A stretch of 64,000 nucleotides of DNA from Escherichia coli. Lineage in GTDB: Bacteria; Pseudomonadota; Gammaproteobacteria; Enterobacterales; Enterobacteriaceae. The position numbers are program-made. The stretch lies in the NCBI RefSeq assembly GCF_041886205.1, contig NZ_CP169029.1. The stretch is one strand, 5' to 3'. Numbering within the stretch: position 1 is the stretch's first letter; each line of letters opens with the position of its first letter. This document shows positions 6,001-9,000 of the stretch, piece by piece.

Positions 6001-9000
6001 GTGAAGACCGCGCTATTCATAAATTCTTCCGTGAAAGCGCCTTTCCTGCGGAGGCGCAAATTCATGAAATACTCAACGTACTTAGCGAGAATGACGGTCT
6101 TACCCTACGAGGCATTGAACAACGGACGAATCTCCGTTATGGGCAAATAGAAAAAGCACTGAAATTATTGGTAGCTGAAAATCCATCGCCTGTGGTGTAT
6201 ACCGAGAAATTATGGCGCAGAACTATCGTCAGTTTCTCTCCTGACCATGAACGAATTAACCATTTGATGAATCAGAGAAAAAATGAGCTGGCAGATGTTG
6301 AAAGCTATATCACGACCAAGGAGTGCAAAATGCAATTTCTGCGCCGCGCACTCGATGAGCCAAGTGCCGAACGTTGTGGTAAATGTAGCAGTTGTCTTCA
6401 GCATCCGTTGCTGTCGCCCGATATTGATAGCGGCTTACTCCATGCGGCAAATTTATTTATTAAACACGCTGACCTGCCATTAAATCTCAATAAACAGGTA
6501 GCATCTGGGGCTTTTACGCAATACGGATTTAAAGGGAACTTGCCTGCGGGTTTACAAGGATCTACGGGGCGAGTCCTTTCTCGTTGGGGAGATTCCGGGT
6601 GGGGAAAGCAGGTAGCACAGGAGAAAAAAACGGGGCGATTCAGTGATGAGCTGGTGGAGGCATGTGCGGAAATGGTTCGCCAACGCTGGAATCCGCATCC
6701 TGAACCAACCTGGGTATGCTGCGTTCCTTCATTAAGGCACCTCGACCTGGTTCCTGATTTTGCCCGGCGACTGGCGGCGAAACTTGGCTTACCTTTTATT
6801 GATGCCATTGAAAAAGTCGTGGACAATCCACCGCAGAATATGCAGCAAAACCGTTTTCACCAGTGTCAAAATCTCGACGGGGCGTTTGTGATTACCCCTC
6901 CTTTGATGCCAGGTCCGGCGTTGCTGGTTGACGATATCGTGGATTCTGCATGGACGCTGACAGTTCTGACAGCACTGTTACGCCAGGCAGGTTGCCCGAC
7001 GGTTTATCCTCTTGCCCTTGCTTCTACCTCGGTAAAAAATTGATGAATCTTTCAGCCAATGCACAAGCGACTCTCCTGCTAACCAGCGATTTTTCTCGCG
7101 CGGCGGCGAGTGAGCATAAACCTCTTAGTAATAGTGAATGGGGGAAGTTTGCATTATGGCTGAAGCACCAACGTATCAGTCCCGCCGAGCTTCTGGTGCC
7201 GCAACCGCAAGAGAAACTTACAGGCTGGAGCGATCCGCGTATTTCTCAGGAGCGTATTCTTGGCTTGCTGGCGCGCGGTCATAGTCTGGCGTTGGCGGTA
7301 GATAAGTGGCAACGCGCCGGTTTATGGATCATAACCCGAGGAGATGCTGATTATCCCGTTCGCTTGAAAAACCGATTGCGAACGGATGCACCTCCCGTTT
7401 TATTTGGCTGCGGGAATAAAGCATTACTGCAAGCGGAAGGTATGGCGATTGTTGGCTCGCGAGATGCTCCGACTGACGATTTGCGCTATACCCAACAACT
7501 GGCCGCGAAACTGGCCCAACAGGGGATTTGCGTTATCTCTGGTGGTGCGCGAGGTATTGATGAATGTGCAATGGCGTCGGCACTGGAGGCCGGGGGAACT
7601 GCCGTTGGCGTATTAGCTGATAGCTTGTTAAAAACGAGTACGTTAGTGAAATGGCGTGAAGGGCTTATAGCAGGCAACCTGGTGTTGATTTCGCCGTTTT
7701 ACCCAGAGGTGCGTTTCACCGTCGGCAATGCGATGGCGCGAAATAAATATATTTATTGCCTTGCTGAAAGCGCAATGGTTGTACGTGCGGGAATGACCGG
7801 TGGAACGATAACCGGGGCGATAGAGGCATTAAAACATCAGTGGCTGCCTGTGCAGGTTAAACCAAATCAGGATATGCAATCAGCCAATTCACGATTAGTA
7901 GAAAATGGGGCGTCATGGAGTGCTGAACAGGCTGAGAATGTGCCGATCAGACTGTCAGACGTTCCTGGGCTGATGTATGACAGAGCACTCCGTAACGCTC
8001 AACCAGAACTGTTTTCGCTGTATGAAGATGACGCAAATTACGCAGTAATGCCCGCGCATACGCCTGTCGATTTTTATCAACTCTTTGTGGCGGAACTGGC
8101 GATCTTTGCAAAGGAATCGATAAGTATTGAAAGGCTGTCGTCTTGTACTGGTTTAACCATCGAACAAATTAGTGTGTGGCTGAACCGCGCAGAAGAAGAG
8201 GGAAGGGTTATCCGATTGGGCGAAGGTCATTATCAGTTCAGGTAATAAAACAGGTGCCGCGTCTGGTTGTGTGCAGCACCTGTTTGAACCTTACCCCTTC
8301 ATCCACATTCGAATGCCGTCGAGGAACATCTGGGTTGCCATCATCACCAGAATCAATCCCATCAGGCGTTCAAGTGCGTTCACCCCTTTCTCGCCCAGCA
8401 GACGTAAAAATAGCGAAGACTGTAGCAGGATGACAAAGGTGCCGCCCCAGGCCAGCAGCAGAGCAATCACCAGATGTCCCATCTGATTTGGGTACTGATG
8501 AGACAACAACATCAGCGTGGCGAGAATAGTCGGCCCGGCGACTAACGGAATTGCCAACGGCACGATAAATGGCTCTTCACCTGCCGGAAGCCCGCTGCTA
8601 TTTCCTGAAGCGCTGGGGAAAATCATCTTAATGGCGATCAGAAACAGTATGATGCCGCCAGAAATGGAGACGGTTTCTGCTCGCAGGCTAAGAAATGCCA
8701 GAATTTTCTCACCCGCAAACAGGAACACCAGCATCACCAGGAGAGCAATAAGCAACTCTCGCACCATGATTGCCCGCCGTCTTTTCGGTTCAGTATGTTT
8801 CAGTACGGACATGAAAATAGGTAGGTTTCCGAGCGGATCCATAATCAGGATCAATAAAACTGCTGCAGAAATGATTTCATTCATAACTCAAATTCCCTGA
8901 TAATTGCCGCGGACTTTCTGCGTGCTAACAAAGCAGGATAAGTCGCATTACTGATGGCTTCGCTATCATTGATTAATTTCACTTGCGACTTTGGCTGCTT

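Follow-up and report, generated by a model that had tools for sequence, protein, structure and literature searches.

The C-terminal phosphoribosyltransferase-like domain of the Escherichia coli RqlH toxin and its conserved D-S-x-W-T loop

The C-terminal tail of RqlH, a RecQ-like helicase that is the toxin of the RqlH–RqlI pair, was investigated in a stretch of 64,000 nucleotides of the Escherichia coli contig NZ_CP169029.1 (assembly GCF_041886205.1), which is referred to as a whole as the window. Very probably the tail is a domain of the phosphoribosyltransferase (PRTase; PRT for the fold) superfamily that belongs to the ComF type, carries the family's own version of the type I phosphoribosyl pyrophosphate (PRPP) loop and has a pocket predicted still to bind PRPP or a 5'-phosphoribosyl nucleotide. 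An earlier note, made from the DNA sequence alone, had called the tail PRTase-like and its PRPP-binding loop divergent; the first of these proposals was confirmed and made more specific, whilst the second went too far. The domain, its likeness to ComF and the effect of mutagenesis were already known, from work of 2012 and 2015. About 30% of complete E. coli genomes carry the rqlHI locus, which affects the fitness of extraintestinal pathogenic E. coli (ExPEC), so the role of the PRTase of RqlH/PsyrT matters. What is added here is a family-wide definition of the loop (D-D-x-x-D-S-x-W-T) and its compatibility with the standard PRT signature, the structural placement of the tail nearest to ComFC, and the mutual exclusivity of Arg668 and Arg636, which makes these two positions, besides W669, side chains of interest.

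Assignment and fold of the tail

The features of the window on which the assignment is based are:

4947–7043, + strand: rqlH (psyrT), the toxin gene, encoding a RecQ-like helicase of 698 aa that ends in a ComF-type PRTase tail (PADLOC PsyrT)
6471–7040, + strand: ComF-like C-domain, residues 509–698, consisting of an N-terminal beta subdomain and a type I PRTase core
6723–6746, + strand: putative pyrophosphate (PPi) loop VPSLRHLD, residues 593–600, between strand 589–592 and helix 601–613 of the model
6825–6878, + strand: putative flexible loop NPPQNMQQNRFHQCQNLD, residues 627–644, with a ComF-type Q..R..NL motif (from model and conservation)
6927–6956, + strand: PRPP-loop motif VDDIVDSAWT, residues 661–670, aligned with LIDDIIDTAGT and LVDDMIDTGGT of Prs and with VDDVVTTGST of GntX
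41016–41699, − strand: gntX, 227 aa, ComFC homologue used as comparator (Pfam PF00156, 32 bits, and a double zinc ribbon, DZR_2)

The interval 6620–7043 corresponds to residues 558–698 and the TGA stop codon of the 698-aa open reading frame (ORF). The likeness to PRTases had been proposed from an alignment of the tail with GntX in two blocks. Comparison of the tail (residues 509–698) with GntX by BLASTP gave an alignment of 76 residues (E=7e-6) spanning the loop and the ComF-type Q..R..NL..AF block, in which LLVDDIVDSAWTLTVL of the tail was paired with MVIVDDVVTTGSTVAEI of GntX and, upstream, QNMQQNRFHQCQNLDGAF with QHFLSARLRKRNLKNAF, the ComF-type motif. With a 72-sequence family profile, hhalign (default settings) matched GntX with a probability of 93.6% over 68 C-terminal columns, and both methods aligned the flexible loop NPPQNMQQNRFHQCQNLD with TQHFLSARLRKRNLKNAF of GntX. 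These results confirm the alignment made by eye. The other block, VPS.LRHLDL against ISVPLWQRRHWRR, was reproduced only in the extended hhalign alignment (mact 0.01), with WVCCVPS opposite RIISVPL. By itself this block has no significance, but a strand followed by VP, a loop and a helix is also the topology predicted by the model. The gntX gene lies about 34 kb from rqlH and outside the island described below, and its product, which has the canonical loop VDDVVTTGST, is a distant, paralogue-like relative of the tail. As the tail scored 15 bits against the NCBIfam GntX model NF008616, for which the cut-off is 304, it is not a GntX orthologue.

AlphaFold2, run on the family alignment of the tail, gave a model (predicted local distance difference test, pLDDT, 87; predicted template modelling score, pTM, 0.86) with the five-stranded parallel α/β core of the PRT fold, preceded by four β strands and two helices (residues 509–581). 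All matches listed by Foldseek for this model were PRT-fold proteins. ComFC was the closest structure (HpComFC of Helicobacter pylori, PDB 7P0H), clearly above the other PRT folds, and lower scores were obtained for PurF (10.6), PRPP synthetase (9.7), the purine and orotate PRTases (9–9.7) and ShosT (9.1), so that structure prediction and comparison also assign the tail to the ComF branch of the PRTase fold. In the model the putative PPi and flexible loops occupy the expected topological positions. Residues 593–600 were tentatively assigned as the PPi loop on topological grounds, and P594 and S595 are nearly invariant in the family set, which comprised 260 homologous tails 42–99% identical to the query. 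The predicted flexible loop, flanked by strands 621–626 and 645–649, combines low pLDDT (47–63) with high conservation, as Q630 was present in 260 tails, N635 in 256 and N642 in 258 (at least 98%).

Searches with general models gave lower scores. The tail matched the generic Pfam model PF00156 with 16 bits (E 0.008), compared with 32 bits for GntX, its best NCBIfam match when searched alone had an E value of only 0.013, and the weak matches to the Prs, HGPRT, APRT and GntX profiles centred on the PRPP-loop region. A single-sequence phmmer search against PDB yielded marginal matches only (best E 0.31), and a family profile was needed. The phmmer result would fit a chance resemblance, seen by eye, in a tail that is not PRTase-like; this explanation was ruled out by the BLASTP, family-profile and hhalign results and by the structural comparison in which ComFC was nearest.

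ComFC differs from RqlH in its own N-terminal double zinc ribbon, which GntX has too, in a longer PPi loop of the RGFNQ type and in its T-T-G-x-T loop. RqlH has a D-S-x-W-T loop, a short PPi loop and a fusion to a helicase; its tail has no zinc ribbon directly before the PRT core, the nearest zinc module being the RecQ-type one at residues 460–483. Common to both are the flexible-loop Q..R..N-L..a-F motif and the structural proximity described above. Motif and model together suggest that the tail, though no orthologue of ComFC, derives from the ComF branch of PRT domains and functions in a similar way.

With the tail as query, the only PADLOC matches besides PsyrT were to two fragment models that bear the label ‘DpdF’, namely PDLC02869 (74 positions), which matched residues 625–698, and PDLC02866 (255 positions), which matched residues 462–694. 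These matches (about 6330–7040) were very strong (E 6e-53 and 2e-18, respectively). Both models look like fragments of a PsyrT-type tail, and could lead to such tails being mislabelled as DpdF.

The PRPP loop across the family

The residues found in the 260 tails at the positions of the loop were as follows.

Position 662: D in 260 of 260
Position 663: D in 258 of 260
Position 666: D in 234 of 260
Position 667: S in 257 of 260
Position 668: G in 127, R in 88 and A in 30 of 260
Position 669: W in 255 of 260
Position 670: T in 253 of 260

The family motif is therefore D-D-x-x-D-S-[G/R/A]-W-T, with D662, D663, S667, W669 and T670 at 97–100%. The acidic pair that had been noticed before the loop is kept. 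D-S-x-W-T is conserved, so the unusual loop cannot be put down to a faulty alignment, and it does not have the canonical T-T-G-x-T form either. In the model, strand 658–665, the turn D666-S667-A668 and helix 669–680 put the motif in the canonical place of the PRPP loop, at the 5'-phosphate site of type I PRTases.

The register of the loop is fixed column by column by Prs and GntX, in which the corresponding sequences are DDIIDTAGT and DDMIDTGGT (Prs) and DDVVTTGST (GntX). The loops compared were:

RqlH (window): DDIVDSAWT
Bacillus subtilis Prs: DDIIDTAGT
Prs (PDB 4s2u, 7xmu, 6asv): DDMIDTGGT
Human PRPS2: DDMADTCGT
Thermus APRT: DDVVSTGST
HpComFC: DDIITTGTT

The nearest loop sequences to that of RqlH are those of Prs, which shares the type I PRT fold and the loop signature with RqlH, as do the purine PRTases (HPRT, APRT and PurF); these are, however, housekeeping enzymes with other hoods, substrates and oligomeric states, and none of the loops compared has Trp at the x position. 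The proposal that T-T-G-x-T is replaced by D-S-A-W-T was thus correct as a difference from ComF proteins. It does not amount to a loss of phosphate-binding residues, since Prs enzymes have D-T-A-G-T or D-T-G-G-T at these positions. Both hydroxyl positions are retained, with S667 as a conservative stand-in for Thr and the last Thr (T670) kept. The counterpart of T670 in HpComFC is T165, and the T165A mutant loses nucleotide binding (PMC9005727). To call the loop divergent agrees with the tail's 16 bits against 32 for GntX on PF00156, but is an overstatement for a conserved family variant: judged from the alignments, the loop is divergent only relative to ComF proteins, and most of its residues fall within the normal range of the PRT superfamily. 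Two features are specific to the family, namely Trp669, which is invariant at the x position, and residue 668, which varies.

The PROSITE-type PRT signature (PS00103) is a hydrophobic strand followed by [DE]-D and x-x-[STAVD]-[STAR]-[GAC]-x-[STAR]. When this pattern was run as a regular expression, ALLVDDIVDSAWT matched, as did 122 of the 260 relatives. A full-text search of the literature did not find the D-S-x-W-T signature described, sequences printed in figures being beyond such a search.

The E. coli protein departs from the family consensus at N631 (6837–6839), where 225 of the 260 relatives have Lys (PQK to PQN in the flexible loop), and also at L599 (mostly P) and P684 (mostly G). E. 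coli RqlH is nevertheless toxic as published, despite these departures.

Arg668, in the PRPP loop, and Arg636, in the flexible loop, were found together in four of the 260 tails; R668 occurred without R636 in 84, R636 without R668 in 106, and neither was present in 66 (Fisher's exact p = 2e-21 for avoidance). On a rough neighbour-joining tree, tails in the R668 state were dispersed among some 40 small groups, so the pattern is not the effect of a single clade; this neighbour-joining and Fitch analysis, based on about 105 columns with many fragments, is a rough control for phylogeny only. R636 aligned with a conserved Arg of ComFC-like and mobile-element PRTases, and in ShosT the flexible-loop residue R285, which is required for toxicity, adjoins the 5'-phosphate of PRPP. 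The distribution suggests that a single phosphate-contacting Arg can be supplied by either loop, which would argue for a pocket that closes and binds a ligand; caution is called for, as 66 sequences lack both Arg residues and the tree is crude. The copy in the window has R636 (6852–6854) and A668 (6948–6950).

The pocket and RqlH toxicity

The C-domain of RqlH was described by Ordonez et al. (2012) as ComF-like with GPATase active-site motifs, and was dispensable for the ATPase, translocase and helicase activities of the protein. Mutagenesis of the acidic motif in a toxicity assay, suggested in the earlier note, had already been published: D663A and DIVD663EVME lose most of the toxicity of RqlH, with a modest effect on viable counts left, and expression of D663A was confirmed by western blot (Russell & Mulvey 2015, PMC4670107), indicating that the pocket matters. 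In the same work the toxicity of RqlH in E. coli F11 was relieved by RqlI, which co-precipitated only with RqlH that retained the tail, and loss of RqlI resulted in SOS induction, filamentation and mutagenesis, all of them D663-dependent. The helicase-dead mutants K49A and D148A still cut viable counts and raised filamentation, showing that toxicity needs no unwinding, and the addition of D663A to K49A restored counts (PMC4670107).

ShosT of the ShosTA system resembles RqlH in being a toxin with a PRTase domain and a DprA-like antitoxin, in its DD pair being essential for toxicity, and in the phenotype of DNA damage and filamentation, with PRPP in the pocket. In the ShosT crystals (PDB 8ZVB/8ZVC) PRPP occupies the equivalent pocket of a noncanonical PRT domain with an elongated PPi loop, and D331A/D332A abolished toxicity. 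No acceptor substrate was found for ShosT, which showed no PRTase activity on common purines, and a role in PRPP depletion or as a sensor was suggested. HpComFC also crystallises with PRPP in its pocket and binds PRPP, AMP and single-stranded DNA (ssDNA), catalysis not having been demonstrated. According to a 2025 preprint, ShosT is the only defence PRTase whose function has been characterised.

In the mechanism that would best fit these data, D662 and D663 would bind Mg and the hydroxyls of the ribose, the 5'-phosphate would be held by main-chain amides and the hydroxyls of S667 and T670 at the N-terminus of helix 669–680, and the conserved flexible loop 627–644 would close over the ligand, which is predicted to be PRPP or a 5'-phosphoribosyl nucleotide. 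According to published work, RqlH requires an intact pocket for its genotoxicity (DNA damage) and is neutralised by the DprA-like RqlI, most likely through binding of RqlI to the tail domain. Several observations weigh against a PRPP-binding pocket of this kind. The tail resembles curated PRTase families only marginally in sequence (Pfam 16 bits, NCBIfam E of about 0.01); the 88 of 260 tails with Arg668, one third of the family, do not match the PRT signature, and roughly half of the family fails it overall; the invariant Trp669 at the x position is without a counterpart in the PRTase loops compared; the literature reports neither a ligand nor an activity for any RqlH/PsyrT tail; and the PRTase domain has no toxicity when expressed by itself (PMC4670107), so the pocket alone does not suffice.

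Conservation of the motif argues against a dead fold but, as the motif is also kept in regulatory PRT proteins, does not tell catalysis apart from sensing. PurR and PyrR are models for sensor-type PRT proteins, and a similar role has been proposed for ComFC. It is possible, though doubtful, that the pocket of RqlH has been remodelled into a sensor or switch that is not a transferase and that responds to PRPP, to a nucleotide or to a nucleic-acid end, gating the helicase or toxicity. Such a role would accord with the binding of PRPP, AMP and ssDNA by HpComFC, the closest structure, without demonstrated catalysis, with the inactivity of ShosT on common purines and the PRPP-sensor role proposed for it, with the family's own Trp and variable residue 668, and with the need for the rest of RqlH alongside its non-toxic tail. 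Every residue class for catalysis-competent PRPP binding is, however, kept under strong constraint, so nothing in the sequence points positively to a loss of catalysis; the loop cannot discriminate here, as non-catalytic PRT proteins share its motif, and sensing overlaps with the mechanism outlined above and does not exclude it. A PRT fold dead in both catalysis and ligand binding, there only for RqlI to dock on or as a structural appendage to the helicase, is very improbable. RqlI binding does require the tail, the ATPase and helicase activities do not, and profile scores to PRTases are weak, but the DD pair, S, T and the flexible-loop Q and N are kept at 97–100% across proteins with no more than 42–67% identity, and D663A loses most toxicity though expressed (western blot).

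In the model of Russell and Mulvey the tail is a DNA-directed phosphoribosyltransferase: the helicase exposes ssDNA, the tail modifies a base or end, the lesion triggers SOS, and RqlI/DprA-type functions help to resolve it. The D663-dependent SOS response, filamentation and mutagenesis upon loss of RqlI, the fusion of the tail to a 3'-5' ssDNA translocase, the binding of ssDNA by ComFC and the Mre11-like and HhH DNA-processing modules of larger relatives are all compatible with this model, which we nevertheless regard as unlikely: modified DNA is not reported in the literature, the evidence from ShosT favours disturbed purine metabolism over direct modification of DNA, and K49A and D148A still cut viable counts and cause filamentation, with counts restored when D663A is combined with K49A. 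Similarly improbable is the idea that the pocket, with its invariant Trp669 and its mutually exclusive Arg668 and Arg636, is specialised for something other than free PRPP. RqlH/PsyrT would in that case act as a phosphoribosyltransferase directed at nucleic acids, or as a switch gated by a nucleotide, and its product would be the genotoxic signal in defence; candidate ligands would be a base or 5'-phosphate end of helicase-delivered ssDNA, or an unusual nucleotide.

The rqlHI gene pair, its island and related proteins

The remaining features of the locus are:

7043–8245, + strand: rqlI (psyrA), 400-aa DprA-like antitoxin (PADLOC PsyrA; ATG at 7043–7045)
5001–6014, + strand: RecQ-family superfamily 2 helicase core, residues 19–356 (TIGR00614; Pfam DEAD and Helicase_C)
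6270–6398, + strand: tetracysteine RecQ-type zinc-binding module (C460, C477, C480 and C483; Pfam RecQ_Zn_bind)
4808–8290, strand not applicable: rqlHI island, 3.48 kb (comparison with the empty site of strain CP53)

The helicase matched the PADLOC PsyrT model PDLC03928 with E=0 and 1057 bits (residues 3–697 on profile positions 5–687 of 689), and the downstream protein matched PsyrA with an E value of 2e-199 (profile positions 1–397 of 398). The product of rqlI also matched the NCBIfam DprA model TIGR00732 below the model cut-off (E 2e-29). The N-terminal 356 residues of the helicase scored 254 bits against NCBIfam TIGR00614 (recQ_fam), exceeding the cut-off of 219.8, and RecQ_Zn_bind matched with an E value of 0.0011; among Pfam domains DEAD, Helicase_C and RecQ_Zn_bind were matched in the helicase and HRDC was not. 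The tetracysteine zinc module has already been described in RqlH of Mycobacterium smegmatis (PMC3378886). Both protein lengths (698 and 400 aa) and the numbering of D663 within DIVD agree exactly with published RqlH/RqlI (PMC4670107). The gene pair is RqlH–RqlI of ExPEC, which is the PsyrTA toxin–antitoxin and anti-phage system. The rqlH of the window belongs to the same family as RqlH of ExPEC strain F11 and PsyrT of Pseudomonas syringae and is almost certainly the same gene, sharing the RecQ-like core, the zinc module, the ComF-like PRTase tail, the adjacent 400-aa DprA-like antitoxin and the D663 motif. There is no difference of substance, the copy in the window being off the family consensus at A668, N631 and L599. 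Sources for RqlHI as the PsyrTA system are Sberro 2013, Russell & Mulvey 2015 and Millman 2022. PsyrTA has been listed among phage-defence systems (Millman et al. 2022, preprint).

The TGA of rqlH and the ATG of rqlI share 1 nt (TGATG), and this overlap suggests translational coupling. A mechanical ORF list gave a 431-aa product at 6950–8245, starting inside rqlH, instead of 7043–8245; the PsyrA profile and the published length of 400 aa identify ATG 7043 as the true start of rqlI.

Three larger proteins have the same RecQ-like core and PRTase tail with extra N-terminal modules (P0256, 1720 aa; P0227, 1441 aa; P0193, 926 aa). The extra modules are a Mre11-like phosphoesterase, helix-hairpin-helix (HhH; RadA/NusA-like) motifs and pentapeptide repeats, and point to DNA-end processing in the larger versions of the system.

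Of 5426 complete E. coli genomes, 1641 carried the rqlHI island, at this site and always on the chromosome, and in these genomes its genes are annotated as ‘RecQ family ATP-dependent DNA helicase’ and ‘DNA-processing protein DprA’. Relative to CP53, it sits exactly between the stop codons of gntU and yhgN, in place of a 56-bp spacer. Its left end has a perfect 13-nt inverted repeat (4819–4846) with a third copy of the arm at 4806–4816, and a 13-nt hairpin (8248–8285) directly follows rqlI.

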